24,159 bases of DNA from Pseudomonadota bacterium (GCA_021834245.1 JAKBDW010000439.1:1-24159), one strand, 5' to 3'; positions 7,838-24,159 are shown, counted from the first letter of the stretch. Notes: generated by a model not told the origin, from the sequence alone. Translations and numbers: made by a program.

Positions 7838-7870
7838 TGCCACTGCCTTCGCCGGTGGTCGGTCGCGTCA

Positions 7871-7995: not shown

Positions 7996-8631
7996 AGGTG
8001 GTTTGGGTCGAGCGCGACCTCGGGGTCCTCGAGGAACACCGAGAGTGCGTCCTTGCGCTCGCGCACGTAGCCGAGTGTTTTGTGAACGGTGTGGCCGGCA
8101 ACAGCCCGAGCTCGGCGAACGCAGCGTCAACGAATGCGAAGAGCGCCTCGACCTTCGGCTTCGTCTCGAGCACCCGTTGGTCACGCTTGGCCTCGCCTTG
8201 GAGCCCCGGCTCGCGGATCCGCTCCTCCACCGCGTAGATCTCGGCGATGTACTCGAGCACGATTCGGGCGCGTTCAGGATCGGCCGCCTCGGCCTCGAAC
8301 AGTTCGCGCCGCGCGTGAGCCCAGTTCCTATTCGATCCCAATTTTTCGGCCCAGGAAAAAACCAAGAGCTTCTGCTGCCTTCGGCATCAGACTGCACTGG
8401 GTCAGGAGCGATAGCAAAAGATCAAAGACGCAGACTTGACGAAGAACGCCTCGCAGGGTTCAATCAATCCGCAGATCTTTCCACTTAATCCCAGAACGAT
8501 TTCTGTCCGCACTTCCCAGGCCACCGCTCTGACCCCGCGTCTATGGAAGCAGCACTTCGTCACCAACCCCATGCGCTCCGAGATTCACGACTTCCCGGTT
8601 TAATCAATTACGCCGCGCGATTACCGCTTAC
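7995..8631 (-). mobile_element. IS66-family remnant: left end (8631) and internal tnpC fragment
   Basis: Minus strand starts GTAAGCGGTAATCGCGCGGCGTA; TnpC motifs WAHARRELFEA...IAEIYAVEERIR...TPFTK and (shifted frame) VFLEDPEVALDPNH. Confidence 0.8.
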
Positions 8632-9033
8632 GCTTCGTCGCTACTTTGTCGAGCTCAGACTTCTTGGGCTCGTGCATCATCGGCTACGGCTCCTCGCCTT
8701 CCCGATGCGGACCGACGATGCATCGCCGGTCAAGCCCAAGATCTCCCGGTTCCAGCGCAAGGAACATCCGCACATGCCAGGGTCTATGACCACGTCGGGT
8801 TATCCGAGCGCCCGCGTTAACGCGCCCGTCCGTGTTGCTTTCCATCTCACTGACAATGTCAGCACCCGAATCAGAAACTTTCGCGGCTCGATGCCTCGCC
8901 TGTACGTACCCCTGTCAACGCTTCGCATGCACCCTCGCGGGTGACCGCGCATGACTCGGGGCCGCCGTAGATTGCTAATCCTTCAACGTAGCGGACTTTC
9001 ACCGTCTATTCCTTGCCGGTTTCCCCGGCGCAC
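8632..9033 (-). mobile_element. Group II intron 5' remnant (domains I-III, class E-like), truncated by IS66
   Basis: 5' end GTGCGCCGG at 9033, followed by conserved blocks GGCCCCGAGTCATGCGCGG, GCGAAGCGTTGACAGGGG, GAGCCGCGAAA, GGAACCGGGAGATC, CGCATCGGGAAGGCGAGGAGCCGTAGCCGATGATGCACG and GAAGTCTGA...AGTAGC. Confidence 0.85.
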
Positions 9034-9074
9034 CTCAGAATTCCTGTCGCGTCCCGCGACGGAAAACTACTGAG
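9034..9074 (-). other. Imperfect hairpin abutting the intron 5' splice site
   Basis: Minus strand CTCAG-TAGTT-TTCC-GTCGCG-GGA-CGCGAC-A-GGAA-TT-CTGAG|GTGCG. Confidence 0.65.
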
Positions 9075-9099
9075 AGAAACCGCATGCTTACCACTTACG

Positions 9100-10266
9100 T
9101 CAGAATGATCTCGGTAGCTCAAGCACATGCTCAGCCACGTAAGAAAGAATCAAGTTAGTGGAAATTGGCGCGACTTGGTATAGCCGTGTCTCGCGGAATT
9201 TGCGCTCTATGTCGTATTCACACGCAAAGCCGAATCCGCCATGCGTTTGCAGACACACGTTTGCGGCTTCCCACGAAGCCTTCGCCGCCAAGTATTTCGC
9301 CATGTTGGCTTCCGCGCCACAAGGCTTATGCGCATCGTAAAGCTCGCAGGCTTTCCAGCGCATTAGATTGGCGGCTTCGAGCTCTATGTAGGTCTCCGCG
9401 ATCGGGAACTGCACGCCTTGATTTTTTCCAATTGGACGATCGAAGATAATGCGGTCATTAGCATATTTTGCAGCCCTGTCAATGAACCAGTAACCATCAC
9501 CGACACACTCGGCGGCGATGAGAGTACGCTCGGCGTTCAGGCCGTCGAGAATGTACATGAAACCGCGCCCTTCCTCGCCGATAAGGTTCTCCGCAGATAT
9601 TTCCAGGTTGTCGAAGAATAGTTCGTTGGTCTCGTGGTTAACCATGTTCGGGATGGGTCGTATCGTGAGCCCGTAATCGATGGCGTGACGGAGATCGACA
9701 AGAAAGACGGACATGCCATCCGATTTGCGTTTTACATCGGCGAGAGGCGTTGTGCGCGCCAAGAGGATCATCATGTCGGAATGTTGGATACGCGAGATCC
9801 AGATTTTCTGACCGTTGACGACGTAATTGTCCCCATTCCTGACAGCCGTCGTCTTTATGCGCGTAGTATCTGTACCGGCAGTGAGTTCCGTAACGCCCAT
9901 CGATTGCAGACGCAGCTCACCCGTGGCGATCTTCGGCAGATACAGACGTTTTTGCTTTTCGGAGCCGTGCCGCAAGAGCGTGCCCATGTTGTACATCTGG
10001 CCATGACATGCGCCAGAGTTGCCCCCGCAACGGTTGATCTCTTCCATAATCACTGAGGCCTCGGTGAGCCCAAGACCTGAACCGCCGTACTCCTGCGGTA
10101 TCAGAGCGGCGAGCCATCCCGCGCGCGTAAGTGCCTCCACGAAGGCCTCAGGGTAGGCGCGCGCTGTGTCCAATCGACGAAAATAGTCGTCAGGGAATTC
10201 GGCGCACAGGGCACGCACCCCGTCGCGGATGTCCTGGTATCGGTCGGGCGTGTTCACATTAGACAT
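9100..10266 (-). CDS. Acyl-CoA dehydrogenase, methylsuccinyl-CoA-dehydrogenase-like family found with itaconate-degradation genes
   Basis: NSGACHGQMYNM, LRLQSMGVTE, GQKIWISRIQHSD, LNAERTLIAAECVGD, RETRLYQVAPISTNLILSYVAEHVLELPRSF. Resembles, from recall, the ACAD of the P. aeruginosa ich-ict-ccl cluster. Confidence 0.85.
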   Translation of the reverse strand: MSNVNTPDRYQDIRDGVRALCAEFPDDYFRRLDTARAYPEAFVEALTRAGWLAALIPQEYGGSGLGLTEASVIMEEINRCGGNSGACHGQMYNMGTLLRHGSEKQKRLYLPKIATGELRLQSMGVTELTAGTDTTRIKTTAVRNGDNYVVNGQKIWISRIQHSDMMILLARTTPLADVKRKSDGMSVFLVDLRHAIDYGLTIRPIPNMVNHETNELFFDNLEISAENLIGEEGRGFMYILDGLNAERTLIAAECVGDGYWFIDRAAKYANDRIIFDRPIGKNQGVQFPIAETYIELEAANLMRWKACELYDAHKPCGAEANMAKYLAAKASWEAANVCLQTHGGFGFACEYDIERKFRETRLYQVAPISTNLILSYVAEHVLELPRSF

Positions 10267-10316: not shown

Positions 10317-11468
10317 TCAGGTCGGGAGACGAAGAACGTCTTTTGCGATGATGTTTCGCTGGATTTCATTGGTACCGCCATAGATGGGGGCAGGCCGAGC
10401 GTGATAGAAGTTGGTGAGAACATCAACGAATTCCAGGCCAAAGTCGATGTTGCCGACCATGGCCCCGGCTGGACCCGCTGCCTCCACCATCAAATCAGCG
10501 ACCCGGGAATAGGTTTCCGTAGCCCAAATCTTCAGCAACGAAACGTCTGAGCCGAGCGTTTCATCGCGTTTTACCATATCGACGAACCGCGCATATACCG
10601 ACGCGAGGTCCGCGACATCGAGTTGGAGCTTGGTAAATTTATCGAGAAACACGGGATCCCCAAGAAGCCCTTGCTGACGCGCCATCAACTCAAGCCGCCC
10701 CAAAGCGTATTGGGACTGTTTGGGACTCCCCAGAGTAATACGCTCGAAGCCCAGCATCGCCTTGGCAATCGGCCAGCCCTTGTTGATTTCCCCGACGATG
10801 TTTTCCTTTGGCACTCGCACATTGTCAAAGAACACTTCACAAAACTCTTCCTGTCCAGCGAGGTTTCGTATCGGTCGAACTGTCATGCCGGGTGAAGCAC
10901 AATCAATCAGAAGAAAGCTAATTCCCTCCTGCTTCTTGCGCGCCTGCGGATCCGTGCGAGCCAACAGGAATATGTGTGTCGCGTCCTGAGCCAGCGTTGT
11001 CCAGGTTTTTTGTCCATTGACGACAAAATGATCGCCATCGAATACCGCTGACGTCGTTAAACTGGCCAGGTCCGATCCGGCATTGGGTTCCGAGTAGCCT
11101 TGGCACCAGATGTGTTCACCCTTCAAAATCTTCGGCAGGTAATACGCCTTTTGTTCGTCCGTTCCATGTTTGATCAGAAGCGGACCCACCATGGTCATCC
11201 CCATGTCCGGGGTACGAGCCACGCCCCACTGCTCCTGCTCCTCTAGGAAAATGAGGAGCTTCGTCGGCGACAATCCCATACCCCCGAACTCAACCGGCCA
11301 CGTCGGAGCGAGCCAGCCTTTTTTCGAAAGGGCGAGATACCAATCCTTGATCTCGCCCCAGCGAAGTCGGTGCGTTGGATAGCGCAAGGCCGAAGGATAG
11401 CTCTGCTCAAAATAACGGTGCACCTCAGAACGAAAGTCTTCATCATCCATCGCATTCCAGTCGGTCAT
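10317..11468 (-). CDS. Acyl-CoA dehydrogenase, catalytic subunit of a PimC/FadE29-type heteromer
   Basis: IWCQGYSEPNAGSDLASL, NGQKTWTT, LGFER, IYGGTNEIQRNIIAK. Start MTDW at 11468 overlaps the upstream stop (ATGA), with a GGGAG RBS. Confidence 0.9.
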   Translation of the reverse strand: MTDWNAMDDEDFRSEVHRYFEQSYPSALRYPTHRLRWGEIKDWYLALSKKGWLAPTWPVEFGGMGLSPTKLLIFLEEQEQWGVARTPDMGMTMVGPLLIKHGTDEQKAYYLPKILKGEHIWCQGYSEPNAGSDLASLTTSAVFDGDHFVVNGQKTWTTLAQDATHIFLLARTDPQARKKQEGISFLLIDCASPGMTVRPIRNLAGQEEFCEVFFDNVRVPKENIVGEINKGWPIAKAMLGFERITLGSPKQSQYALGRLELMARQQGLLGDPVFLDKFTKLQLDVADLASVYARFVDMVKRDETLGSDVSLLKIWATETYSRVADLMVEAAGPAGAMVGNIDFGLEFVDVLTNFYHARPAPIYGGTNEIQRNIIAKDVLRLPT

Positions 11469-12631
11469 GACGCGACTCCCCGAAACGATGTCCTTCCAAG
11501 CATCGCGTAGCGATGACGGTGGTAGGCCGAGTTGCCTAGCCATGCTGCAAGGACGAGTGCTCGGTTCAAATACAGCCCCAAATCGTACTCATCGGTGTAT
11601 GCGATAGCCCCGTGCAGTTGAATGGCTTCGCGGCAGATCCCGAGCGCAGCATCTGAGCAACGGGCTTTTGCACGGCTCACCGCGCCATGTCGGGCGGCCG
11701 AATCCGTTTCATCGTCTAAGGCAACCAGTGCATCGGCTACCGCTGCTTTGGACAGTTCTCTTTGGATATACAGGTCAACGGCACGGTGCTGTAGCGCCTG
11801 GAAGCTACCGATAGGCTTTCCGAATTGCACCCGCATTTTCATGTAGCCAAGCGTCATGTCCAGGGTTTTGCTCATCAGACCCACGAGGGACACGCTGGCC
11901 ATTACCGTTGCCTCATCTATCGCTACAGTTAAGGTGTGCAGGGCGTTGTTGCCAGCGCAAATCAGCTGTTCGTCTGTGACTTCCACCTGATTGAATGCAA
12001 TCCGCCCGATCTTCGACCCATCCGCCAACGGATGAAAACTGAGATCAACGCCCGGCGAGTCAACGGGAACCCAATATAGAACTGGACCTTGCTCGCTTCG
12101 TGCTGTAACGATAAAACCATCCGCCACATCAGCATGTCGCAGGAAAGATTTAATTCCCTGCAGTTTCGCCGGCCCTCGGGAATTTAATTTCGCAGTCGTT
12201 CTGATCAAATCCGGCTTGTACGATCCGTCGGGCTCCTGCCATGCAAGAAGGGGGATGAGGTCGCCGGTGGTAACTTTAGGCAAAAGATCCTCGGCAATTC
12301 TTCCACCCGCATGACAAAGTACCCCACCCGCGAGTGTGACCGCCTCTATAATGGGCTCTGGCGCCACTGATCCACCGAGTACCTCGGTGATAACTGCCAA
12401 CTCCGTAAAGGACAGGCCGAGGCCGCCGTATTGATCTGGCAAGGTGACTGCGAACCAGCCGAGTTCCGCCATTTCTCGCCAAACGGAGCGGTCAAAGCAA
12501 GAGGAGCGGTCCCGCAACGCGCGCGCGCGCGATGCGCCACCCGTGCGCTCGACAAATGCGGCAACGCTGTCCCTGAGCAGTCTTCTTTCGTCGGTCCGAT
12601 CGACCTTGACTTTACCAGTAGTCACCCTCAT
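11465..12631 (-). CDS. Acyl-CoA dehydrogenase, non-catalytic partner subunit (PimD/FadE28-type)
   Basis: DERRLLRDSV, WREMAELGW, RVQFGKPIGSFQALQHRAVD, AIQLHGAIAYTDEYDL, ending WLGNSAYHR without the xGT catalytic loop. The start is uncertain (12631 or 12643). Confidence 0.85.
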   Translation of the reverse strand: MRVTTGKVKVDRTDERRLLRDSVAAFVERTGGASRARALRDRSSCFDRSVWREMAELGWFAVTLPDQYGGLGLSFTELAVITEVLGGSVAPEPIIEAVTLAGGVLCHAGGRIAEDLLPKVTTGDLIPLLAWQEPDGSYKPDLIRTTAKLNSRGPAKLQGIKSFLRHADVADGFIVTARSEQGPVLYWVPVDSPGVDLSFHPLADGSKIGRIAFNQVEVTDEQLICAGNNALHTLTVAIDEATVMASVSLVGLMSKTLDMTLGYMKMRVQFGKPIGSFQALQHRAVDLYIQRELSKAAVADALVALDDETDSAARHGAVSRAKARCSDAALGICREAIQLHGAIAYTDEYDLGLYLNRALVLAAWLGNSAYHRHRYAMLGRTSFRGVAS

Positions 12632-12787
12632 ACCGCGCCTCATGTTGCATTCGCCCGACGATAGGACGCGTGCCAGCCAAATAACACTGCGCCACGTGAT
12701 CCAAAATCCGATCAAGCACCGCCCTCATTCGCTTTGGAGTGCCGCGGCCCTGCTCGCGCATGACTCTCGTCGCGGCGTCAAGGCCTA

Positions 12788-13093: not shown

Positions 13094-14023
13094 CTATCCC
13101 AATTCAGCCATCAGTTCCGGGATTGCCTGGAATAGGTCGGCCACCAATCCATAGTCCGCCACTTGAAAGATGGGCGCTTCCGGATCTTTGTTGATGGCCA
13201 CGATCACCTTGCTTTCCTTCATTCCCGCTAGATGCTGGATCGCGCCGGAAATACCGACCGCAATGTAAAGTTCAGGCGCGATTATCTTTCCCGTCTGCCC
13301 GACCTGATGGTCGTTTGAAATGTAACCTGCATCAACTGCGGCTCTGGAGGCACCGATCGCCGCATTGAGTTTGTCGGCTAGCGGTTCCAGCAACTTGAAA
13401 TTCTCGGTACTTCCCATGGCGCGTCCGCCGGAGACCACAATCCGCGCGGCGGTGAGTTCTGGTCGGCTCGACTTAAAGATCTGTCGGCTTATTAGTTGGG
13501 ATAGTCCGCTGTCGCCAGTAGCGGCGACGGGTTCAATGAACGCGTTTCCCGCACACCCAGCCGCATCAAAACTTGTAGTGCGCACCGTCACAACCTTGAT
13601 GGCATCGACAGACTGCACCGTAGCCATAGCTGCGCCAGCGTAGATGGGGCGCACAAACGTGTCAGGCGACTGCACCGAGACAATATCCGAAACCTGAGTC
13701 ACATCCAGGAGCGCCGCAACCCGCGGCAGGAAATCTCTGCCGAAGGCGGTTGCCGCCGCCACTAGGTGCGTATACCAATTCGCCAAGGAAACGACAAGGT
13801 TTGCGAGGTTTTCTGGCAGCGCGCTGGCGTATTCATCGGCGTCCGCCACGAGGACTTTGGCCACTCCCGTCACCTTAGCGGCTTGGTCGGCGACGCTCGA
13901 ACAGTTCTTACCCGCCACCAGGAGATGCACGTCAAGCGCCATCATCGCCGCCGCGGTCACCGCGTTCAGTGTTGCACTCTTGAGCACAGCATTATCGTGT
14001 TCCGCAATAACAAGGACTGCCAT
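13094..14023 (-). CDS. etfA: Electron transfer flavoprotein alpha subunit
   Basis: [58 protein letters not shown]. Confidence 0.97.
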
Positions 14024-14025
14024 AC

Positions 14026-14775
14026 TTAGATCACCTTAGCTTCGTTACGGAGTTTTTCTATAAGAATTTTCACGTTCGGCACCAATAGCCCGCCCTTACG
14101 TTGCGGCGGATCGGAAATCTTTAGTGTCTTAAGACGCGGGCTAAGATCGATACCGAGCGATGCCGCGCTAAGCATGTCCAACGGTTTCTTTTTGGCCCTC
14201 ATGATGTTTGGCAAAGTCGCATAGCGAGGCGTATTTAGGTGCAAGTCCGTCGTGATCACAGCTGGCAGTTTAAGCTTCACGATTTCCAATCCGCCGTCGA
14301 CTTGACGTGAAACTTGGACATTTGCGCCGTCGCAGGTGACTTTCGAAGCATACGTGCCTTGACCCCAGCCAAGCAGAGCCGCCAACATTTGGCCTGCTTG
14401 GCCAGCATCGTCGTCGATAGCCTGTTTGCCAAGAATTACCAACTGTGACGCTTCCTTCACCACCACTTCTTTGATCAGCTTCGCCACGTGGAACGACTGC
14501 AACACCATGTCTGTTTCGACTAGGACCGCCCGATCCGCCCCCAGGGCAAGTGCACTTCGTAATACGTCCTGCGAAGAGACAGCACCAATCGAGACGGCAA
14601 CGACCTCGTTCAACACACCTGCCTCTTTCATTCTTACTGCCTCCTCGACGGCTATCTCATCGAATGGATTCATCGACATCTTTGCGTTGGCCATATCGAT
14701 GCCCGTTTCGTCCGATCTAACTCTTACCTTAATGTTGTAATCCAGGACGCTCTTGACTGCGACCAACGCTTTCAT
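14026..14775 (-). CDS. etfB: Electron transfer flavoprotein beta subunit
   Basis: [53 protein letters not shown]. Confidence 0.97.
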
Positions 14776-14826: not shown

Positions 14827-15708
14827 TCAAACGGATTCCAAAGTCAGTTCTACGACTCCGTTGTTGAGCACCACGATATCTCGCGCGTCTACTCTTGCAC
14901 GTAGCCGAAGTTGGTTTTCACTCTCGCGCCATAGCTGGAAGCGCACTGTTTCGCCCGGCCACACTGGCGCGGTGAAGCGGAGCGCCATGCTTGAAAACCT
15001 CGACGCTTCGTACCGACAACATGTCTTCAACACTGCGTGCGCTGCCATGCCGAAAGTGCAGAGACCGTGGAGAATCGGCCGAGCGAACCCTGCAGCCCTT
15101 GCGACTACAGGGTCCACATGCAAAGTGTTGTAGTCACCGCTTAGACGGTAAATTAGAGCAGCCTGCTCCAGCGACGAAAGTTCTACCTCAATGTCCGCCG
15201 CACGCTCCGGGATTGGCGGCAACGGCTCTGGTCCTGGATCGCTGAGACCTTTCTGCTCACTGTATCCGCCGTCACCACGCAGAAACGTAACCATCCTGTT
15301 TCGTGCCAGCAGCTCTCGATCCATCTGATCCATGATCTCGCGCTCGATCACCACGATGGCTCCCTTACCAGGGCCTTTATCGGTGATCGACACAACCCGA
15401 TTCCGAGCAATGACCGTTTCCTCGACCGGCATCGGTTTGAATAAGCGGATATGCTGCTCGCCCTGCATTAACTTGACCCAGTTCGCGCCGGTCGCAGAGT
15501 CTTTCCACCAGAAACCCGGCGAACCGAGCACCGCCGCCATAGTTGGTACTGCCTGTAGATTTCTCTCGAATACGAAGCGTAGCTGCCCCTCGTCCAGCGG
15601 ATCCCCCCCCATACCAATGCCTAGCGCATAGATTATGGTGTCGCGCCAGCTATATTTTTGCACGATCTCGCCGAAGTCCCAGTTCTTAACGGCTTGATAG
15701 TTGAGCAT
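14827..15708 (-). CDS. R-specific enoyl-CoA hydratase 2 (MaoC/MFE-2-type double hot-dog)
   Basis: YSWRDTIIYALGIG, LMQGEQHIRLFKP, IYRLSGDYNTLHVDP (hydratase-2 motif with P->T), ILHGLCTFG, FTAPVWPGET. Confidence 0.9.
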   Translation of the reverse strand: MLNYQAVKNWDFGEIVQKYSWRDTIIYALGIGMGGDPLDEGQLRFVFERNLQAVPTMAAVLGSPGFWWKDSATGANWVKLMQGEQHIRLFKPMPVEETVIARNRVVSITDKGPGKGAIVVIEREIMDQMDRELLARNRMVTFLRGDGGYSEQKGLSDPGPEPLPPIPERAADIEVELSSLEQAALIYRLSGDYNTLHVDPVVARAAGFARPILHGLCTFGMAAHAVLKTCCRYEASRFSSMALRFTAPVWPGETVRFQLWRESENQLRLRARVDARDIVVLNNGVVELTLESV

Positions 15709-15948: not shown

Positions 15949-18126
15949 TTACTGCTCGTTGTCCCTTTTGAACCAGATTGCCTTATGTTGATCCATCTCG
16001 GCATAGCGGCCCGGCGGAACGGGAAGCGTAGTCATCGGATGCTCAATGATTGCCGGTCCATCTATTCTATTCCCTGGCTCCATCTTCTCCATATCCCAAA
16101 CGGTATTCTCCACCCAACGCCCGCCCCAATAAGCTGGCCTATGGCCTTTAATGGCAAACTTTGCGGGTTCCTTGCCCTCAAGCGGGTAGGAAACTAGCTT
16201 GGGTTGGATCTTGGGGACGACGGCCTCCAAATAAACACTAGTGATCAAGTAGCCTGCTTCGGGAAAGCGCGAGGCCGTTGGATAAATCCGTGTATATGTC
16301 TTTTCGAAAGAGTCACAGATCATCTGCACATCTTCGATGGTCTCGACCATGCCGTGTTCAACCGGCGCTTCCCAACTAGAGAAGAGCTGCCCCACATACC
16401 GGGCCGCGATACCGTACCTGAAGGTCACTTTATCCTTGGAGAATCCTTCCTGTTCCAGCTCCCGGTAAGCTTGCGCCTCGAGCACTCGCCATGCATCGTT
16501 CATCGGCTTGGTGATAGTCAATTTAACATCTGCTGACAACGAGGGCAGGATGGAACAGGTCAAACTTTTTTCATAGCGATGGTAGTATTCGGCCGCAGCA
16601 ATGCCGAAGGCAGAGAAAGCTGCCGCCCAGGGAACCGTGAACATTCCGCCTAGTTTAAGTCCTTGTTCAATACCCCATAGATGCAACGGACCGCTACCAC
16701 CATAGACAATCATCGTGAACTCGTGGGGATCCATGCCTCGCGACAACAAGGTGTCGTTAACGTGATCTTGCAGACCGGCATGCATCAAATCCAAAACACC
16801 GGCACATGCTTCGAAAACATCCATTCCTAACGGCTTTGCCAAACGCTCGGTCAACTCGTGTATGGCCTTCGCTCTGTTAAGTTTGACCTTCCCTCCAAGG
16901 AAGTTATCGGGATTCAGATAGCCAAGGGCAACGTTAATATCGCTCAGGGTGATTTCGTCGTAATTTAAACAGATCCCCAACTTGGAACCGGCACACTCAG
17001 GTCCCAAGATAACCCGCTTCGCCTCCCGGTCCACATGGATCGCCGTTCCCGTTCCGTTACCAATGGAATCGGTGGCGAGCATGGTCATATTCAATCTATG
17101 ACCGGCAAAATTAGGCTCCCGGTTTAGACTCTGCTGACCGCCTACGATCACGCCGGCCTCGAAGCTGGTGCCTCCGAGGTCGGTGCAAAGGAGATTCTTG
17201 ATCCCTTTCAGATCCGCCATTATCTTGCCGCCTAGCATCCCACCGGTGGGTCCCGAAACGATGCTTTCATACAGCCTCGGGTAACGAATGTTTGCCACTC
17301 CGCCAAAGGCCAGCAAAGTTTGCAAGTCGTGGACATAGCCATCGGCTTTCGCCGCATCTTCTACGTTCTTCAGTCTCGTTCTGGCACCGTCACAGGCAAA
17401 CCCCTCAACGAGGGTCGTCTTCATCCGCGCGCTCTCCTTAATGATCGGACAGATATCGCTGGACAAGATCACATTGATATTAGCTCCACGTTTCTTGATT
17501 ATTTCCCGGGCGATCTCGGCAGCTCGTCTCTCATGAACCGGATTTGCGTAAGAGCAGAGGAAACAGATCCCAATAACTTCCACCCCTGTGTCGACGAGTT
17601 TTTCGACGCCCTTGCGGACGTCGCTCTCATGCATAGGAATGATCACATGGCCCGCGTCATAGTGGCTGCAAGGGGGAAAATAGTTACCACCCGAGAGACG
17701 CTCAGTTATCTCTATGACATTCTTTCGGTCGATCATCGGCCGCGTATGCTCATGCAGCTGGAGCTTCCACTTCTCGGCTGGCGGCCGTCCCAGCCAGGTC
17801 AGAGCTCTTTCCAAGAAGGGTGTATCCCCTTGCCCTCGGGTTACGAGCAGGCCCACTCTCTTTCCGGCCCCTGTGATCAAGATATTAAGCATGATCGTCC
17901 CGGTATAGATGGAGGTGTCCGTATTCCTGTGAATATCACCGGACGTGAGTCCCAACTGGGCAGCGGCATCTGAAACAGAACCCATATAGCTAATGGCTTC
18001 ATTGCCGTAGTTGGTTAGATATTTCCCGAGGCTGAAATTTCCCTCCTTATCAACGAGGAAGGTATCCGTCATGGTTCCGCCGGCGTCTAGCGCGACGAGA
18101 TATCTCCTATTATCCAGCTGTGTCAT
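15949..18126 (-). CDS. Acetone-carboxylase beta-like subunit (hydantoinase A/oxoprolinase, ATP-binding)
   Basis: LDAGGTMTDTF, SGPTGG, TDLGGTSFE, DSIGNGTG, YGGSGPLH, GPAIIEHPMTT; 725 aa; ATGA overlap with the gamma gene. Confidence 0.9.
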   Translation of the reverse strand: MTQLDNRRYLVALDAGGTMTDTFLVDKEGNFSLGKYLTNYGNEAISYMGSVSDAAAQLGLTSGDIHRNTDTSIYTGTIMLNILITGAGKRVGLLVTRGQGDTPFLERALTWLGRPPAEKWKLQLHEHTRPMIDRKNVIEITERLSGGNYFPPCSHYDAGHVIIPMHESDVRKGVEKLVDTGVEVIGICFLCSYANPVHERRAAEIAREIIKKRGANINVILSSDICPIIKESARMKTTLVEGFACDGARTRLKNVEDAAKADGYVHDLQTLLAFGGVANIRYPRLYESIVSGPTGGMLGGKIMADLKGIKNLLCTDLGGTSFEAGVIVGGQQSLNREPNFAGHRLNMTMLATDSIGNGTGTAIHVDREAKRVILGPECAGSKLGICLNYDEITLSDINVALGYLNPDNFLGGKVKLNRAKAIHELTERLAKPLGMDVFEACAGVLDLMHAGLQDHVNDTLLSRGMDPHEFTMIVYGGSGPLHLWGIEQGLKLGGMFTVPWAAAFSAFGIAAAEYYHRYEKSLTCSILPSLSADVKLTITKPMNDAWRVLEAQAYRELEQEGFSKDKVTFRYGIAARYVGQLFSSWEAPVEHGMVETIEDVQMICDSFEKTYTRIYPTASRFPEAGYLITSVYLEAVVPKIQPKLVSYPLEGKEPAKFAIKGHRPAYWGGRWVENTVWDMEKMEPGNRIDGPAIIEHPMTTLPVPPGRYAEMDQHKAIWFKRDNEQ

Positions 18127-18692
18127 TTGTTTGCCTCCTTAGCCCACTTCCCTGTTTGGCTAGCGCTCAGGTCCTGGAACCAATCTTTGCTCGCGCTCTT
18201 GAGCGGCTTCTGTTCCCACTCATAGAGGGTGTCGATATCCGGTAGCACTTCAAACAGGAAGGGGTATCCAGAAGGCACCGCCTCCACCCCGAGTTGAGCC
18301 ATGCACCCCGGGCAGTAAAACTCCCTGACCTCGACAAAGGTCGGGTTCGGTTTGTTCGGGGTGGTAAAAATCTCGTCGAGCTCTTCGGTGGTGGTTCTGG
18401 CATACACTAAACTGCTCAACTTCCAGTTGACGCGATAGTCGCCGAACTCCTGGCCACAATCGCATTTGACAAAGCGCTCCTTGCCTTTCTCAACTACGTA
18501 CAGGTGCTCAGAGATGCGAACCAGTATGGTTTCTTTCCACTTGACCCGCTCTTGGAGGACTTTCAAATATTTCCAGAACCGATCCGTATCTTTGACAGGC
18601 ATGCGCAGCAAGGCATGGACCTCAGCCAAGGGGAGTTTCCCTTCAGACAGCAACTTCAGCTTGTTTTTTGTCACGAAGCTATTCTCAGTCAT
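18123..18692 (-). CDS. Acetone-carboxylase gamma-like subunit (Zn-binding)
   Basis: KDTDRFWKYLKVLQERVKWKETILVRISEHLYVV, CDCG, NWKL, REFYCPGC, VEAVPSGYP: the AcxC pattern with four Cys. Confidence 0.9.
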   Translation of the reverse strand: MTENSFVTKNKLKLLSEGKLPLAEVHALLRMPVKDTDRFWKYLKVLQERVKWKETILVRISEHLYVVEKGKERFVKCDCGQEFGDYRVNWKLSSLVYARTTTEELDEIFTTPNKPNPTFVEVREFYCPGCMAQLGVEAVPSGYPFLFEVLPDIDTLYEWEQKPLKSASKDWFQDLSASQTGKWAKEANK

Positions 18693-18784
18693 GTCTCACC
18701 TTTTCATTAAATTTGGGGCGTAAGGTATCGGCATCGTCACATTCGTACACTTGACGCGCCGAGCGCACCTGCTCCGGAGGAGCC

Positions 18785-21013
18785 TTAAATTTTGAAGTCT
18801 TCGCCTAACTGCCAGAACCCGTAGAACTCGCTGTGCCACTTTGGATATTGCAGCGTGTCCCTATACATCTCGGTCACATCCGGATGGGTAAACTGCCTAG
18901 CCAGTACCTTGGATCTTTCGCGAAGCCAAAACTCCTTGGCCGGTAGCGCTCTCGCCTTCCGTTTGTTGCGGATCTCTTGCCGCGCTTTCGCACTGGCTTC
19001 AATATCCACTTGGCAGTCTCCGTTGGCAGATAACTTCACAACCGCACCGTAGACCTTTCGGGCTGTCTCCGGAGACATCCAACTACGCTCCACGTCTTGT
19101 TTGATTAGATCAAGGTCTCGATCCAGCGGCTCACCCCAGGCACTGCTGGCCTGCAGACCCTGATAGACAAGATCTCCATGCTTGAGTTGGGTGGGTGGAG
19201 ACTCGTTGCCGTATAGCTCGACAGAACCCGCCTTCAGCGTGCCTTGTTCCATCATGCGGCAGGCTTCAACAAAATCCGTGGGCAGAGTTACTCCCTTGTC
19301 CAATAACTCAAAGGCATTGGTGTCGTGCAGGTACATCACCAAGCCGTTCAACATCGGGTAGCCGCCACATACGCCAACGGCGCAACCGAGCATGTCTGTT
19401 CCACTGATTCCCATTGTGTTCATCGTCAGGAACTGGCCAGGGTCACTGATCAAGTGCGCAGAGGACATCCCCATGCTCCCGCGGTGCTTGCCATGGGAAC
19501 ACATGTCCGGAATCATTTTCCGAGCCAGTGAAGTAAAGGCTGGTTCGACGAATTCCCATTCCTCGGCTTCGCCGAAATCGGCCTCCGGATTGCCGGCGCC
19601 CACCATGCAAGCTTCACCATCGCGCCAAGGCGAAGGCCCTCGTGGACAACTGCCGACGTAACCGAAATCCGTCATGCCCCAAGGAATGTCGTTTTTCAAG
19701 ACGCCACCCATGCCAAAAACGGAATACACGTATTCGCACAGATAGGATTCCTCAAGGAATCCCCTCATGAAGTATGACCAGCCGAAAACGTGGTTCGGCA
19801 ACAATGACAGCATGGTGCCAACGACGTTCGGAGCACACGTGCTTACATCCGTACGAGTAGGGTTGACGATGGATCCCGGTGACCCTTCCACATCCATCAT
19901 CTTCAAGAGGGAGGTGTTGACCAGTGGACTTTGTACGAGGACAGCCATCGAATGCCATCCCATGCCCAACAGAATTCCGCCTCGGTGTCCATTGGCCCAG
20001 AAGTAATCCTGGCTGGTGCTGCCATCGCACTCGACGTTTATAAAAGAAGAAGGAGTGATGGATATTTTCTCGTTCAGGTGAACGACCCAATCTCTATCCG
20101 CTTCACGGTACAAGTGGCCCATGATTCCCTTTTGACGTACCGGACGAAACAATGCCTGACGAAAATCACCGGGCACCATCTGCGTTCTGACGCGGCGCTC
20201 TATGGCCCTACGTTCCCGCTCCAGGATCTCCCTCATAGCCTGCTTAAAATAGCCCCGTCCAAACTCATCGACGAGTTCCATGACCCGTCCTCGGAGCATG
20301 ATGGCCCCGGTGAGCCGCATCTTTTCATCCAGGACATTGAGGGTGCCCGTCCTGGTGCGGCGCGTCCACATCCGCTCAAACCACTTGTACTCGATCAGGT
20401 CCTCGCCAATTTTCATGGGCCCGTAGGTGAACCCATCACAGTAGGTCGTAGGGGAGTGTGCGGGAACGCCCCCAGCACAGATGGAATGTCCTGTGTCGGC
20501 GATATGATTGACACCGGCAGCCCAAGCTACCAACTCGCCGTCGTAGAAGATTGGGACATATGTATAGCAGTCCGATTGATGGGGCCCGCCGGCCAAGGGA
20601 TCATTTGTCCCCCAGATATCGCCGTCTCTGAAGCCCGGATTCTCTTCCAGGCCGGTATCCGCCATATGTTTGACTATTAGCGGGAAGCTCATGACGTGCC
20701 CAGTGAGGCCAAAGGAAGACGCTACGACTTCCCCCTCAGGTAGGGCGAGCAAATGCAGAAGTTCACCCATTCCGACCCCTGCCGGGGAACCGGATACATG
20801 TTTGGACGTTTCTCGGGCGGCACTGACCGCCGCAATCAGCCTAGTCTGAAATTTGTCGAATTTAATGGGATCTTTTTCCAGCAACTCCAGATATTTCAGT
20901 CCAAATATGTGACCTGTATCTTTGTATTGTTGTTCAGCGTGATCAATTCTTTCCTTCAGCCTGATATCTTCGCCCTTGAGTGTTGTCCTAAGAATCTTTT
21001 GCGTTGAACCCAT
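18785..21013 (-). CDS. Acetone-carboxylase alpha-like subunit (hydantoinase B fold, metal-binding)
   Basis: ARETSKHVSGSP..GEL, NDP...PHQSD...VPIFYDGELVAWAAGVNHIADTG, NPEADFGEAEEWE, GKHRG, GGYP, WGEPLDRD, EFYGFWQL. GGAGG RBS at 21018-21022. Confidence 0.9.
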   Translation of the reverse strand: MGSTQKILRTTLKGEDIRLKERIDHAEQQYKDTGHIFGLKYLELLEKDPIKFDKFQTRLIAAVSAARETSKHVSGSPAGVGMGELLHLLALPEGEVVASSFGLTGHVMSFPLIVKHMADTGLEENPGFRDGDIWGTNDPLAGGPHQSDCYTYVPIFYDGELVAWAAGVNHIADTGHSICAGGVPAHSPTTYCDGFTYGPMKIGEDLIEYKWFERMWTRRTRTGTLNVLDEKMRLTGAIMLRGRVMELVDEFGRGYFKQAMREILERERRAIERRVRTQMVPGDFRQALFRPVRQKGIMGHLYREADRDWVVHLNEKISITPSSFINVECDGSTSQDYFWANGHRGGILLGMGWHSMAVLVQSPLVNTSLLKMMDVEGSPGSIVNPTRTDVSTCAPNVVGTMLSLLPNHVFGWSYFMRGFLEESYLCEYVYSVFGMGGVLKNDIPWGMTDFGYVGSCPRGPSPWRDGEACMVGAGNPEADFGEAEEWEFVEPAFTSLARKMIPDMCSHGKHRGSMGMSSAHLISDPGQFLTMNTMGISGTDMLGCAVGVCGGYPMLNGLVMYLHDTNAFELLDKGVTLPTDFVEACRMMEQGTLKAGSVELYGNESPPTQLKHGDLVYQGLQASSAWGEPLDRDLDLIKQDVERSWMSPETARKVYGAVVKLSANGDCQVDIEASAKARQEIRNKRKARALPAKEFWLRERSKVLARQFTHPDVTEMYRDTLQYPKWHSEFYGFWQLGEDFKI

Positions 21014-21026
21014 GATACCTCCGTAC

Positions 21027-22353
21027 CAGTAGTGACCTGATGTTAGTGGCCACGCTGGCCGTAAATAACTGATTCATGTGGGATAAATCGCGATTTTTTT
21101 TGGTCTCGATTTCGACTTCGATAAACGCTGGTGCGACCCTGCGAAGACCCTATTCGCGGATGGTATCCGTGCACTCCGGCAAGCTGGTATTTGCGCAGTT
21201 GGCGAATCATCTTCCGCTCACCACGTTTCGCCGGTGTGTCGCGGCGTAGGACGGCGAGCACAAGATCAAGACCTTCGCTTGTCTCGAACAGTTTCTCTGT
21301 CTGGCGTTCGCCCAGCTTGACTTACCGCGAGAGCCTGCGGGATATCGAGGCTTGCCTCCGAGCCCAGAACGACAAGCTCTATCACATGGGAATCCGCAGC
21401 TGGATTTCGCACAGCACTCTGCCGGATGCGAACGAGGTGCGCGACTGGCGCATCTAGGCCAGCTTCCCACAGCACCTGATCGCGATGCCCCGCAAGCTTG
21501 TATGTCGACGAGCCGTTTGGACTCGATCTCAAAGAGACGGTCTACGTCCTCGACGCAACGACCATCAATTTGTGCCTGTCGGTCTTCCCGTGGGCCCTGT
21601 TTCGTACAACGAAGACGGCGGTCAAACCGCATACCCTGCTCGACCTGCGAGGCAATATCCCCGCCTTTATCTATATCAGCGACAGCAAGATGCACGATGT
21701 CAACATACTCGAACCATCGCCGCCAGAGGCCGGCACGTTCTATCTGATGGACCGCGGATATCTCGACTTCGAGAGGCTCTTCCGGTTGCACACCACGGGC
21801 AGTTTCTTCGTGATGCGGGGCAACTCCAACCTGAGGGCCCAACGACCCTACTCGCGTCCGGTGGACCGACGCACAGGGGTCATTTGCGATCATACGGTTA
21901 TCCTGACGAGCTTCTACTCGAGTCAGGACTTCGAGACCCCGCTGCGGCGGATTCGATTCAACGATCCGAGGACCGACAAGCGACTGGTATTCCTGACGAG
22001 CCACTTCGCCTTGCCGGCCCTGACGATCACGGAACTGTATCGCTGCCCTTGGCAGGTCGAACTCTTCTTCAAGTGGATCAAGCAGCATTTGCGGATCAAG
22101 CAGTTCAACGGTACGAGCGAGAACGCCGCGAAGACGCGGATTTGGACCGCGGTCTCGATCTACGTGCTCGTCGCCTTCGTCAAAACGCGATTGAAGATCC
22201 AAGCTAGCCTCTATGAAATGATACGGACCTTGAGGCTAACCATGTTCGAGGTAACCTCTTTGGATACGCTGTTTTCGCCAATTCGCACAGCTCAAAACGA
22301 TCCCGATACCGGCAACCAGCTGAATTTGTTCCACTAACGTCCGGACACTGCAG
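21027..22353 (+). mobile_element. IS4-family element (DUF4372-type transposase pseudogene) with 9-bp target duplication
   Basis: Imperfect IRs CAGTAGTGACCTGATGTTAGTGG / reverse complement CTGCAGTGTCCGGACGTTAGTGG; direct repeat CCTCCGTAC at 21018-21026 and 22354-22362. The transposase (HSGKLVFAQL...YRESLRDIE...VLDATTI...MDRGYLDF...WQVELFFKWIKQHL) has stops and frameshifts. Confidence 0.92.
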
Positions 22354-22715
22354 CCTCCGTACCATCATCAATTCGATCGCCAAACACACTTTTATGGCCC
22401 TATCCGGGTTTCTCCAATGGTTCGTAGATAAGTCGTTGGCTTTGCCAAGTGATTGGCACGGTCATCCTTTCCTAAGTTCAAAGCCCCTACGGCCGCCTTC
22501 ACGGCGCGCCAAAATCCCAGCGCGCCAAGCCGACCGGGCGAGCGCAGTGAGCGGCTGGGACCCATGGGTATGACAGGAAACCAGTTGTGACCTCGCCTTC
22601 GCTGCGCATATTCTGTAACAGGTCCTACTCGAACTGACGAGTACGGGAAACCTCCCAGATTATGCATATCACCACAAGTCCTTACACCTTTAAATTCGCA
22701 TGAAATCCTTTTTTG

Positions 22716-22739
22716 TGAACACTGTTCAATTATGTAATT
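22716..22739. promoter_or_regulatory. Possible operator palindromes in the AT-rich upstream region
   Basis: TGAAC-ACT-GTTCA (22716-22728, a T-N11-A spacing) directly followed by AATTA-TG-TAATT (22728-22739). Confidence 0.25.
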
Positions 22740-22804
22740 ACTATGCGACGAACTGGAGGTTCTGTCAAGACTTAGCCTTTTTCAATGGGGGTATGTGTCT
22801 GAGC

Positions 22805-23545
22805 GAGCAGTGGTGCGCCATCAGAAGTTCTTCAGCTTGGAGGAACTGAACACGGCGATCCGGGCACTGCTGGTTGAGTTCAATAATCGGCTGTATCAAC
22901 GTCTGCCGGGATCGCGCCGTAGTGTGTTCGAAGCGCTCGATCGGCCGGTAATGCGGGCCTTGCCATCCTCGCCGTACGTGTTTGCCGAATGGAAGGAAGT
23001 CACGGTCGCGTTTGACTATCACGTCGAGATCGACGGTCATTACTACAGCGTCCCGCACGCCCTAGTCGGCCACAGCGCGTGGGCGCGCTTCTCGGCGGCG
23101 AGCGTCGAAGTGTTCTTCCGCAGCGAGCGCGTGTCGAGCCATGTGCTCTCCTATCAGCGCGGCGTGTATACGACGATCGACGAACACATGCCGAAATCGC
23201 ATCGGGCGCACGCCGAGTGGTCACCGCAGCGCCGCATCCAGTGGGGGTGAATCGATCGGTGTGAACACCGGCGCCGTGGTCGAGCACCTGCTTCGCTCCA
23301 AACCGCATCCAGAGCAAGGCTATCGGGCGTGTCTCGGCCTCTTGAGCCCTGGGAGCCGCGAGTACGGCGATCAGCGCTTAGAGGCCGCCAGTGCGCTCGC
23401 AGTGCGGCTGCGCAGTCCCACCCCCAAAGGCGTTAAGTCGATCCTCCAGAGCGGCCGCGATCGACCTCATGCGCAAACCGAACTCCTGGACCTCGACTTG
23501 CCGCCGCATGGCAACGTCCGCGGTCCCGGCTATTTCCACTGGTGA
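22805..23545 (+). pseudogene. istA: IS21-family IstA transposase, C-terminal fragment, frameshifted near 23248
   Basis: HQKFFSLEELN, DYHVEIDGHYYSVPH, EHMPKSHRAH, KPHPEQGYRACLGL, HGNVRGPGYF. Confidence 0.9.
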
Positions 23546-23572
23546 TGACGATTAATCTTAAAGGCGAAGACG

Positions 23573-24140
23573 ATGTTGACGAGTCCGACGATCGAAACCC
23601 TCAAGAGCCTGAAGCTGCACGGCATGCTTCAATCGCTCGAGGAGCAACAGCAAACCCCGACCATCCAAGCACTCTCGTTCGAAGACCGCATCGCGCTCAT
23701 CATCGATCGCGAGCGGCTCTACCGCGACAATCAGTGCAAGTCGCGGCTGCTGCGGGGCGCGCACTTGAAGGTCGCCGCCGCGTGCATCGAGGATATCAAT
23801 TTTAAGGCCGCCCGCGGCCTCGACAAGAAACAGATCGCCACGCTCGCAACCGGAGAATGGATCCGCAGGTCCCAAAATGTCCTCATCACAGGTGCCACCG
23901 GCAGCGGGAAAACGTGGCTCTCGTGCGCGCTCGCCCAGCAGTGTTGTCGTCAAGGCGTCTCGGTGACGTACTGGCGAGTACCGCGGCTGATCGAGGAGCT
24001 GCGGGTCGTTCACGGTGACGGGAGCTACATCAAGTTCCTAATCAAGTTCCTAACATCGACCGCAAAGGCTTCGCTGCTGGTCCTCGATGACTGGGGTTTG
24101 ACCGCACTGTCCGCCCAGGACCGGGCGGATCTGCTCGAAA
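23573..24140 (+). pseudogene. istB: IS21-family IstB AAA+ helper, interrupted at 24141
   Basis: LKLHGM, LSFEDR, Walker A ITGATGSGKT, Walker B LLVLDDWG, DRADLLE; carries an in-frame 12-bp tandem duplication ATCAAGTTCCTA (24029-24052). Confidence 0.9.
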
Positions 24141-24159
24141 TGCGTATTCCGGACCATGT
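24141..24159 (+). mobile_element. Probable terminal IR of a second IS21-family (IS408-like) element running off the window
   Basis: TGCGTATTCCGG... replaces the expected IstB continuation after DLLE and resembles IS408-group ends. Confidence 0.55.

Follow-up and report, generated by a model that had tools for sequence, protein, structure and literature searches.

A divergent acetone-carboxylase-like operon with alpha-gamma-beta gene order, probably encoding a ketone carboxylase for a substrate other than acetone

Three subunit genes and their neighbors

The window, by which we mean the whole 24,159-nucleotide stretch of Pseudomonadota bacterium DNA analyzed here, carries three intact genes on the minus strand between positions 15949 and 21013, exactly where the initial annotation had placed them. 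They encode a HyuB/AcxB-like alpha subunit (18785 to 21013, 742 amino acids; Pfam Hydantoinase_B), an AcxC-like gamma subunit with a Cys4 zinc site (18123 to 18692, 189 amino acids; Pfam Acetone_carb_G, 109 bits), and a HyuA/AcxA-like beta subunit (15949 to 18126, 725 amino acids; Pfam Hydant_A_N, Hydantoinase_A, and Hydant_A_C). A ribosome-binding site (GGAGG) lies 5 nt ahead of the alpha ATG, the beta start overlaps the gamma stop (ATGA), and the native promoter region is truncated by IS debris approximately 115 bp upstream of alpha. None of the RNA runs contained the sequence. In phmmer searches, the best solved relative of each protein is the corresponding subunit of acetone carboxylase, matched over the full length: 5m45_A for alpha (E value, 1e-79), 5svb_C for gamma (8e-31), and 5m45_B for beta (2e-146). 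The proposed alignment with AcxB, AcxC, and AcxA is borne out by these matches and by the Pfam assignments.

The next downstream gene encodes a MaoC-type (R)-enoyl-CoA hydratase with a double hot-dog architecture (14827 to 15708, minus strand; Pfam MaoC_dehydratas and MFE-2_hydrat-2_N). On the same strand we observe an ETF pair (13094 to 14775, with beta at 14026 to 14775 and alpha at 13094 to 14023; Pfam ETF and ETF_alpha) and a two-subunit acyl-CoA dehydrogenase (10317 to 12715), whose PimD-like (11465 to 12715) and PimC-like (10317 to 11543) components have pimD_small (180 bits) and pimC_large (283 bits) as their best NCBIfam matches, both under the equivalog cut-offs. A further acyl-CoA dehydrogenase (ACAD) of the glutaryl-CoA/acryloyl-CoA dehydrogenase type is encoded at 9100 to 10266 on the minus strand (Pfam ACAD domains; NCBIfam AcrC, 226 bits, and GlutCoADH_Des, 199 bits, both under cut-off). 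The plus strand encodes a 7Fe-type ferredoxin (5343 to 5672; Pfam, DUF3470) and a hexapeptide-repeat protein similar to PaaY and gamma-carbonic anhydrase (2773 to 3306; NCBIfam, 234 and 153 bits, respectively, both under cut-off), the latter being a possible, if weakly linked, contributor to bicarbonate supply.

Conserved sites and an altered pocket

The closest known systems are AcxABC of Xanthobacter autotrophicus Py2 (PDB 5M45, 5SVB, and 5SVC) and its canonical relatives from Paracoccus, Cupriavidus, and Sinorhizobium, in which an alpha subunit of HyuB type likewise combines with a HyuA-type beta and a zinc-binding gamma. Common to these systems and the present one are the Glu-His-Asp-His Mn/Fe ligands, the Cys4 zinc site, the ATP motifs, the AMP-capping Ser/Phe pair, and the alpha fold. 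Both likewise lack a biotin domain, and alcohol dehydrogenase genes often adjoin both. In acetone carboxylase alpha, Mn is coordinated by AcxB residues E89, H150, D153, and H175 (PMC5543143). Together with H111, they align with E84, H145, D148, H170, and H106, so that the metal-ligand mapping given in the initial annotation holds, including the H111 counterpart. E84, H145, D148, and H170 are invariant across 68 family members. In gamma, CxC...CxxC (CDC...CPGC) aligns with Cys74/76/124/127, which retains the zinc site, and beta keeps the motifs DAGGTMTD and DLGGTSFE as well as counterparts of the AMP-capping Ser391 and Phe405; the ATP motifs and four zinc cysteines are intact, as had been claimed. 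An AF2 model of alpha (pLDDT 91) adopts an AcxB-type fold, with TM scores of 0.91/0.89 to 5m45_A. The score of 0.91 for AcxB compares with 0.76 for ApcD and 0.64 for caprolactamase, and hydantoinase/oxoprolinase/caprolactamase-type hydrolases score 0.64 to 0.66.

[quoted passage not shown] At the ATP site of beta, one ATP would phosphorylate the enol form of the ketone and bicarbonate; an internal channel would carry the resulting intermediates to alpha, at whose predicted Mn/Fe site carboxylation would yield a beta-keto acid. Gamma would be the structural, zinc-binding subunit. Of this scheme, the conserved residues, the alpha fold, and the subunit set are what we see here; the mechanism itself is inferred. 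Taken together, it is very likely that the three genes specify a ketone carboxylase of the Acx type, whatever its substrate.

It is, conversely, highly improbable that the complex is an ATP-dependent hydrolase, lactamase, or kinase of the hydantoinase/oxoprolinase superfamily in which gamma was retained by chance. The large subunits do belong to the HyuA/HyuB superfamily, CapA and CapB of NCBIfam give weak matches (63 bits for CapB against a cut-off of 1000), and CO2 incorporation is a prediction for every member of the clade. However, the gamma subunit is known solely from carboxylases and is treated as specific to the Acx/Apc enzymes (PMC13677872 and PMC4959651), while HyuAB hydrolases are two-subunit or fused proteins without it. 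In both sequence and fold, alpha also resembles AcxB far more than it does caprolactamase or N-methylhydantoinase, carbonic anhydrase genes occur within the clusters, and we observe no amidase-type or nitrogen-handling context at the loci.

The surroundings of the catalytic site do differ from those of acetone carboxylase. As initially proposed, neighboring pocket segments are changed, with the Xanthobacter segments SPIVEQEGELCFT and GIIIHVGTM aligning opposite SPAGVGMGELLHL and GLTGHVMSF. The Mn-proximal segment of alpha is Gly-rich (AGVGMG versus IVEQEG in acetone carboxylase), and where the solved enzyme has its cross-subunit gating switch, alpha-Glu85/beta-Asn578, the present one has Val and an inserted Phe-Ser. 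A re-made gating contact between alpha and beta characterizes the lineage described below.

A radiation sister to the canonical acetone carboxylases

Identity to the canonical subunits amounts to 28 to 29% for alpha, 33 to 38% for gamma, and 35 to 36% for beta. In a tree with L092 as the canonical anchor (1574 bits to the crystallized enzyme XaAC), alpha is not nested among bona fide acetone carboxylases and falls in a separate clade of approximately 100 sequences (SH-aLRT, 97 to 99) from which canonical Acx is excluded. Among the clade loci where all three genes were found, all but four display the alpha-gamma-beta order, whereas canonical loci, such as L092, are arranged beta-alpha-gamma; the departure from acxABC order noted in the initial annotation is real. 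The enzyme is no one-off, belonging to a large uncharacterized sister radiation with alpha-gamma-beta order, members of which appear in genomics papers as "acetone carboxylase" or "deeper-branching AcxB clades" (PMC4959651 and PMC13714315).

A second point of comparison is provided by the acetophenone carboxylase ApcABCDE (PDB 5L9W), from Aromatoleum aromaticum, and by Acr, an acetone carboxylase of Rhodococcus with five subunits (PMC13677872). They belong to the same superfamily, and the present enzyme is expected to share their ATP-driven ketone carboxylation chemistry. As here, a small zinc-subunit gene immediately precedes a HyuA-type gene. The suggested resemblance to the first three apc genes holds in the sense of a "large-small-HyuA" order, but apcA is HyuA-type and the first gene of the present operon HyuB-type, which makes the analogy superficial. 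Apc and Acr also have two HyuA-type paralogues, in contrast to the single HyuA at this locus; the sole other Hyu pair in the MAG, on contig C50, is 25 to 28% identical. Among the neighboring genes there is no candidate for an epsilon subunit (about 30 kDa), with the MaoC hydratase downstream and IS debris upstream. The NCBIfam Apc equivalogs score far under their cut-offs (ApcB, 39 versus 250; ApcC, 338 versus 1500; ApcD, 142 versus 1500), and the alpha fold is less similar to ApcD than to AcxB. Because the Acx hallmarks are present, alpha lies outside the canonical clade, and a second HyuA paralogue is absent, the sequence comparisons support the original reading of the operon as neither characterized enzyme and probably a new ketone carboxylase.

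It is improbable that the operon simply specifies a far-diverged carboxylase of acetone and butanone, the usual annotation of Chloroflexi and marine MAG homologues. Its catalytic and metal-binding residues and fold would all be Acx-like, as observed, genome papers do annotate members of the radiation as acetone carboxylase (PMC4959651), and Zn-ADH genes resembling the canonical acxABC neighbor come after many of these operons. On the other hand, the low identity (28 to 38%), the separate clade, the gene order, the gating residues, and the Mn-proximal segment all set the enzyme apart, and acetone is not assigned to the deeper AcxB clades by PMC13714315 itself. The sigma-54 AcxR regulator of canonical systems has no counterpart at the present locus, where IS debris lies upstream. 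Canonical operons have acetoacetate-handling neighbors; no acetoacetate-specific genes are seen at the loci studied here, which instead conserve ACADs, hydratases, and ETF, plus BadI in relatives, none of which is needed for acetone. The substrate is probably a ketone other than acetone, and gene context in relatives points to a larger, likely alicyclic one.

Gene context and candidate substrates

In the closest relatives (80 to 86% identity), an SDR or Zn-ADH adjoins the operon, and the neighborhoods include alcohol dehydrogenases, CoA ligases or transferases, a BadI-type ring-opening hydrolase, PimCD-like dehydrogenases, thiolase, ETF, and carbonic anhydrase. In the genomes G061 and G062, a gene scoring as a BadI equivalog (486 bits, against a cut-off of 467.6) is located 4 to 7 kb from the operon, accompanied by thiolase, SDR301, MaoC289, ECH, ETF or ETF-QO, and a beta-class carbonic anhydrase, the last occurring together with a hexapeptide protein in G062. 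Since these two genomes are close kin, their shared synteny counts as a single observation. In L009, another of the close relatives, alpha-gamma-beta is followed co-directionally by a pair of CoA transferases along with a crotonase of the MenB/BadI family. More distantly, locus L065 (alpha 34% identical) constitutes an independent case, in which one co-directional cluster comprises alpha-gamma-beta, a BadI-like gene (462.5 bits), genes for an SDR and an OYE ene-reductase, and an Acs/acetoacetate-CoA-ligase-like gene.

Several genes of the window recur in these clusters. The MaoC hydratase is an orthologue (486 bits) of MaoC289 of G061, which in L104 is also followed by an ETF pair. The pair that flanks the carboxylase in G061 and G062 is orthologous to the PimD-like and PimC-like proteins (534 and 734 bits), the third ACAD is an orthologue (732 bits) of one that in G062 adjoins a PaaK-like ligase on the upstream side of the carboxylase, and a homologous ferredoxin is encoded immediately upstream of the carboxylase in G061. 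Genes for BadI, a ligase, a transferase, or a thiolase are absent from the window itself. Elsewhere in the MAG, contig C58 encodes the thiolase, SDR301, another SDR, and a PaaK-like ligase. The only BadI-like gene of the MAG (C601, 461 bits) adjoins a BadH-like SDR and was rejected as an orthologue of the carboxylase-linked BadI of relatives, being 62 to 64% identical.

Based on gene context in relatives, we tentatively favor, with somewhat less than even confidence, a carboxylase of alicyclic (cyclohexanone-type) ketones feeding pimeloyl-CoA. A cyclohexanone-type ketone would be formed from the alcohol by the adjoining SDR or Zn-ADH and carboxylated to 2-oxocyclohexane-1-carboxylate. After CoA activation by the PaaK-like ligase or family-III CoA transferases, the BadI-type hydrolase would open the ring to pimeloyl-CoA, which PimCD-like dehydrogenase/ETF, MaoC hydratase, 3-hydroxyacyl-CoA dehydrogenase, and thiolase could convert to glutaryl-CoA. 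If true, carboxylation of cyclohexanone-like ketones would represent a new oxygen-free route to ring opening; in the literature searched, we found no description of pathway entry via ketone carboxylation. Counting against a cyclic substrate, known Acx enzymes accept only acetone and butanone (PMC13677872).

The proposed route parallels the bad/ali/pim system of Rhodopseudomonas palustris (BadI, 2-ketocyclohexanecarboxyl-CoA hydrolase; PimCD, pimeloyl-CoA dehydrogenase), given the BadI equivalog in relatives and the PimC/PimD-like two-subunit ACAD, hydratase, 3-hydroxyacyl-CoA-dehydrogenase-type SDR, thiolase, and ETF shared by all clusters. It differs in that the PimC/D-like genes here fall under the equivalog cut-off, and that entry there proceeds by cyclohexanecarboxyl-CoA dehydrogenation and hydration, whereas here ketone carboxylation would be the entry step. 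The usual origin of the BadI substrate is BadH and AliB, and no equivalog of either was present in G062, G063, or G000. The cyclohexanecarboxylate/benzoate pathway also uses BadI and Pim-type genes, so their proximity to the carboxylase could reflect a pathway island with no functional link.

Thiolases and an Ich/Ccl-type module in the clusters are just as compatible with a ketone that is acyclic or methyl-branched. That the enzyme carboxylates an acyclic ketone above acetone size, either methyl-branched or a medium/long-chain methyl ketone (e.g., 4-methyl-2-pentanone, a 2-alkanone, or an isoprenoid ketone), is possible but rather doubtful; after CoA activation, the beta-keto acid would undergo cleavage by thiolase, with the acyl-CoA entering beta-oxidation. 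Such a route would fit L006 (44% identical), where an SDR, a CoA ligase, and a thiolase come directly after beta, and the CoA ligases, ACADs, and ECHs that come after many alpha-gamma-beta operons. It is also consistent with a methylglutaconyl-CoA-hydratase-like ECH and an Ich/Ccl-type pair in the window, a methylcrotonyl-CoA-carboxylase-like set past the cluster in G061, and upstream DUF1302/DUF1329/MMPL genes in G062, a type linked to hydrophobic-substrate uptake. The samples originate from mine tailings or drainage, sites where branched secondary-alcohol frothers are used. However, a BadI equivalog and MenB/BadI-family crotonases occur next to three independent operons, L065 includes an OYE ene-reductase, and the conserved ACAD pair is PimCD-like (dicarboxyl-CoA type), none of which an acyclic substrate would explain.

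Carboxylase operon and its surroundings

The operon in the window is genuine and complete and belongs to a large and unstudied branch of ketone carboxylases, and the substrate hypothesis attached to it is specific and testable. Its three genes are closely packed on the minus strand and fill exactly the span given in the initial annotation (15949-21013): alpha (18785-21013; 742 aa, Pfam Hydantoinase_B), gamma (18123-18692; 189 aa, Pfam Acetone_carb_G), and beta (15949-18126; 725 aa, Pfam Hydant_A_N, Hydantoinase_A, and Hydant_A_C). Upstream of alpha, the first of the three genes, is a GGAGG ribosome-binding site, and the start of beta overlaps the stop of gamma.

The likeness to AcxB, AcxC, and AcxA that had been noticed by eye is borne out: the nearest solved relative of all three subunits is the Xanthobacter acetone carboxylase, matched over the full length by alpha (E value, 1e-79), gamma (8e-31), and beta (2e-146), with the acetophenone carboxylase subunits a clear second. 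The first alignment block of alpha is free of gaps, so that AcxB E89, H111, H150, D153, and H175 correspond to window alpha E84, H106, H145, D148, and H170, the counterparts that the initial annotation had expected. In the solved enzyme, Mn is bound by His150, His175, Asp153, and Glu89, and the gamma zinc site is formed by Cys74/76/124/127 (PMC5543143); every one of these residues has a counterpart in the window proteins. Beta retains both phosphate-binding motifs as well as the AMP-closing Ser and Phe, and the earlier description of intact ATP motifs and four zinc cysteines therefore stands. So does that of altered pocket segments, with Xanthobacter SPIVEQEGELCFT and GIIIHVGTM aligning opposite SPAGVGMGELLHL and GLTGHVMSF in the window. 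An AlphaFold model of alpha based on a 50-sequence alignment (pLDDT 91, pTM 0.90) superposes on AcxB with TM scores of 0.91/0.89, versus 0.76 for the acetophenone carboxylase subunit ApcD and approximately 0.65 for N-methylhydantoinase and caprolactamase. Within the superfamily, the gamma subunit is held to be diagnostic of carboxylases (PMC13677872, PMC4959651), and we consider a non-carboxylating activity of the window enzyme highly improbable.

The window is a complete contig, the longest of its MAG (3.59 Mb, 601 contigs, 57% GC; completeness, 80%; contamination, 5.4%), and its sequence is present in metagenome runs from mine tailings and mine drainage; none of the RNA runs searched contains it. 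Transposase remnants of the IS256/Mutator, IS110/IS1111, IS630-like, IS4/IS5-like (internal stops), and IS21 istA/istB types (1-2608, 3419-4337, 7868-9098, and 21130-24159) lie on both flanks of the cluster and also break up catabolic genes, one of them truncating the upstream region about 115 bp ahead of the alpha start codon. The cluster has the appearance of a mobile island that has undergone rearrangement, and the carboxylase has lost its native upstream region. A promoter scan upstream of alpha returned no sigma-70-like site, and among the five closest loci the intergenic regions upstream of the operon do not align beyond the ribosome-binding site. No homologue at E 1e-20 was found in the 60 nearest genomes (0/60), which together with the IS flanks fits a horizontal acquisition of the operon, in a MAG that is only 80% complete. 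Elsewhere on the contig (6101-7843, minus strand), a CitE/citramalyl-CoA-lyase-like gene (TIGR01588, 178 bits; RipC, 135 bits) comes after a 285-aa ORF for which no Pfam or NCBIfam model gave a match; one possibility is that the two handle a methyl-branched dicarboxyl-CoA.

A separate branch with its own gene order and gate

Identity to the canonical Paracoccus and Cupriavidus subunits is low (alpha, 28 to 29%; gamma, 33 to 38%; beta, 35 to 36%). The Paracoccus alpha subunit scores 1574 bits to the crystallised enzyme and thus anchors the canonical clade. An exhaustive profile-free search yielded 118 cluster representatives with E values of 1e-30 or lower, and a scan of one genome per species, queried with 10 closer sequences, yielded 80 loci. 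A maximum-likelihood tree built from 141 alpha sequences places the window protein in a five-member clade (support, 100; 80 to 86% identity), whose other members are a seawater contig and MAGs labelled Sterolibacterium sp., Rhodocyclaceae bacterium, and “Proteobacteria bacterium DX1.bin89.” Its sister is a Solirubrobacterales/Actinomycetota group (51 to 54% identity), followed outward by a large Dehalococcoidia/Desulfobacterales group (approximately 40%). With Cycloclasticus, Porticoccaceae, and numerous further Gammaproteobacteria included, these groups form a clade of about 100 sequences (SH-aLRT, 97 to 99) that excludes the canonical acetone carboxylases, and the phylogeny thus agrees with the initial annotation in setting the window enzyme apart from them.

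The gene order noted there likewise differs from the canonical one, being alpha-gamma-beta in the window versus beta-alpha-gamma in canonical loci. Wherever all three genes were located, every locus of the clade but four (L051, L052, L053, and L063, which have the canonical order) is arranged alpha-gamma-beta, and the order is therefore a trait of the lineage and not a local rearrangement. The four exceptions form a sub-clade that has either reverted to beta-alpha-gamma or kept it within an alpha-gamma-beta radiation. A proposed likeness to the acetophenone carboxylase genes holds in part. According to NCBIfam, the HyuB-type protein is the counterpart of ApcD, and ApcA and ApcC are HyuA-type, so that the apc order reads HyuA'-small-HyuA-HyuB; the window locus has in common with it only the adjacency of a small gene and a HyuA gene, and the rest of the comparison falls away.

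The four metal ligands are invariant in 68 loci, and H106 (His111 of the Xanthobacter enzyme) is missing only in the small beta-alpha-gamma sub-clade, where it is replaced by Ser. The regulatory contact described for the solved enzyme is formed by beta-Asn578 and its partner alpha-Glu85, a residue at the Mn-proximal helix (PMC5543143). This pair is not retained in the window enzyme, and the equivalent positions vary in concert, clade by clade: Glu with Asn in canonical loci (2 loci), Arg with Glu in the gammaproteobacterial type (36 loci), Leu, Met, or Ile with Ser in the Dehalococcoidia type (19 loci), and Val with an inserted Phe-Ser in the window, Actinomycetota, and L006/L008 (11 loci; Phe-Leu in L008, Phe-Ala in L006). 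In the window these positions are alpha residue 80 and beta residues 582-583, and the Mn-proximal segment of alpha is Gly-rich (AGVGMG). Judged from the alignments, the catalytic machinery is intact and the gate between ATP site and metal site appears rebuilt. The covariation, which is seen across related clades and is not statistical, suggests that a cross-subunit gate was kept and made from different chemistry.

Gene neighborhoods

Around alpha-gamma-beta operons generally, we observe recurring Zn-ADHs or SDRs, CoA ligases, family-III CoA transferases, ACADs, and crotonases. Within the sub-clade of the window, this pattern stands out more clearly. In one close relative of the window locus (G062), the cluster comprises an SDR, alpha-gamma-beta, NnrU, a PimD/PimC-like ACAD pair, a beta-carbonic anhydrase, a small MaoC, a thiolase, BadI, a 301-aa SDR, an ETF-QO, a hydrolase, a double MaoC, and an ECH. 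In another (G061), it comprises a ferredoxin, alpha-gamma-beta, the ACAD pair, a thiolase, BadI, a 301-aa SDR, an ECH, the double MaoC, and ETF-beta/alpha. The crotonase of both relatives is a BadI (2-ketocyclohexanecarboxyl-CoA hydrolase) equivalog (486 bits; cut-off, 467.6), and none of the 14 control genomes has a BadI above the cut-off. A seawater locus (80% identical) has, downstream of alpha-gamma-beta and in the same orientation, two CoA transferases and a MenB/BadI-family crotonase. Finally, a locus from a distant sub-clade, on the alphaproteobacterial MAG chromosome OZ252220.1 (L065:2788-14983; alpha 34% identical to that of the window), encodes in one direction a BadI-like hydrolase (462.5 bits), a 320-aa protein without known function, an SDR, an OYE/NemA-like ene-reductase (402.7 bits), an Acs/acetoacetate-CoA-ligase-like protein, and then alpha-gamma-beta; taken as a whole, this gene set resembles a full path to pimeloyl-CoA that starts from cyclohexenone or cyclohexanol. 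Since G061 and G062 are kin, we count three independent BadI associations and not five, so that the radiation is linked to ring-opening BadI-type hydrolases in at least three independent gene neighborhoods. Just past the carboxylase/BadI cluster of G061 (L104:17028-20783) lie an IclR regulator and a methylcrotonyl-/geranyl-CoA-carboxylase-like set (carboxyltransferase, ACAD, and biotin carboxylase), which gives this island two different carboxylation systems.

Within the window, orthologues of these genes are the double MaoC (14827-15708; 486 bits), the ETF (13094-14775), the PimD/PimC-like pair (10317-12715; 534/734 bits), and a third ACAD (9100-10266; 732 bits), reshuffled relative to the kin by IS activity. 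BadI, CoA ligase, and thiolase are absent from the window. A second piece of the same pathway is contig C58 of the same MAG (L106:411-9508), with orthologues of the relatives' carboxylase-linked thiolase and 301-aa SDR, in addition to a PaaK-like CoA ligase (491 aa), a TonB-dependent receptor, a ChcB1-like SDR, and a 220-aa protein without a family match. The sole BadI-like gene of the MAG, on contig C601 (461 bits), is 62 to 64% identical to the relatives' carboxylase-linked BadI proteins, which are 84 to 88% identical among themselves; because of this identity and its BadH-like SDR neighbor, it probably represents another paralogue. BadH and AliB make the substrate of BadI in the cyclohexanecarboxylate pathway as it is known. 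Neither equivalog was found in G062, in genome G063, or in the MAG of the window.

Candidate substrates

Acetophenone carboxylase has five subunits, and to our knowledge only two substrate types are known for biotin-independent ketone carboxylases, namely, acetone with a few short aliphatic ketones, and acetophenone. Every relative of the window enzyme, as far as we know, is annotated “acetone carboxylase” in genomes. Most characterised acetone carboxylases accept only acetone and butanone; an enzyme partially purified from Rhodococcus rhodochrous B276 also takes somewhat longer aliphatic ketones, as, it appears, does the five-subunit Rhodococcus aetherivorans type (PMC13677872). Plain acetone/butanone carboxylation by the window enzyme is in our view quite unlikely, as the gene context speaks against acetone.

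Our leading and still tentative proposal is that the window lineage is the first carboxylase of alicyclic ketones, feeding pimeloyl-CoA by oxygen-independent ring cleavage; jointly, and just as tentatively, the alpha-gamma-beta radiation would consist of ketone carboxylases with diversified substrates and not of “acetone carboxylases.” A cyclic alcohol or enone would be converted to the cyclic ketone (cyclohexanol to cyclohexanone), whose ATP-dependent carboxylation would give a 2-oxocycloalkane-1-carboxylate (2-oxocyclohexane-1-carboxylate from cyclohexanone). Following activation to the CoA ester, BadI-type ring opening would yield pimeloyl-CoA, and PimCD-type beta-oxidation would lead on to glutaryl-CoA. 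Beyond the conservation of residues and fold, we infer these steps from gene context. Such a ring cleavage differs from both the Baeyer-Villiger and the 1,3-dione hydrolase routes. An acyclic or methyl-branched ketone as substrate is somewhat unlikely; the thiolases, the Ich/Ccl-type pair and the methylglutaconyl-CoA-hydratase-like ECH of the window, and an SDR-ligase-thiolase set behind a 44%-identical operon are all compatible with it.

Two steroid-related candidates were rejected. We had presumed the ATP-dependent 25-hydroxysteroid kinase/dehydratase of Sterolibacterium to be Acx-like, which was not borne out. It is actually a 40-kDa phosphotransferase (PMC8449060, PMC7411048). For carboxylation of the acetyl group left by steroid ring-A cleavage in the 2,3-seco pathway, PMC11780191 proposes an acetate-releasing hydrolase and mentions no carboxylase.

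Earlier notice of the radiation is confined to genome papers, in which members are labelled “acetone carboxylase” of Dehalococcoidia (PMC4959651) or “deeper branching clades” of AcxB with uncertain specificity (PMC13714315). In a literature search, with most subscription journals outside its coverage, no paper ties the Acx family to cyclohexanone or pimeloyl-CoA, and nothing relevant was found on acetone carboxylase with steroid or alkane, or on “acetone carboxylase-like.” The radiation, about 100 sequence clusters with their own gene order and alpha/beta gating contact, ranges over Rhodocyclaceae-type bacteria, Actinomycetota, Dehalococcoidia, Desulfobacterales, Cycloclasticus, and others. 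Should the alicyclic proposal be true, it would provide an oxygen-free entry to pimeloyl-CoA for cyclohexanol/cyclohexanone-type solvents, naphthenic compounds, or terpenoid ketones. In that case the enzyme would also be a new biocatalyst that fixes CO2 onto cyclic ketones by forming C-C bonds, and many claims of “acetone metabolism” drawn from metagenomes would be corrected.

Three or more paralogous alpha-gamma-beta operons occur in one Chloroflexota MAG (L018/L029/L044) and in one Dehalococcoidia MAG (L033/L045/L046), a possible sign that these uncultured bacteria possess ketone carboxylases for several substrates. In addition, the sister clade of Solirubrobacterales and other Actinomycetota (L004/L005/L016/L017) displays a conserved operon of a LacI regulator, a transporter, a CoA ligase, an MmgE/PrpD-family protein, alpha-gamma-beta, a small protein, a Zn-ADH, and an EchA19/PaaF-like crotonase, a combination for which we know of no pathway.
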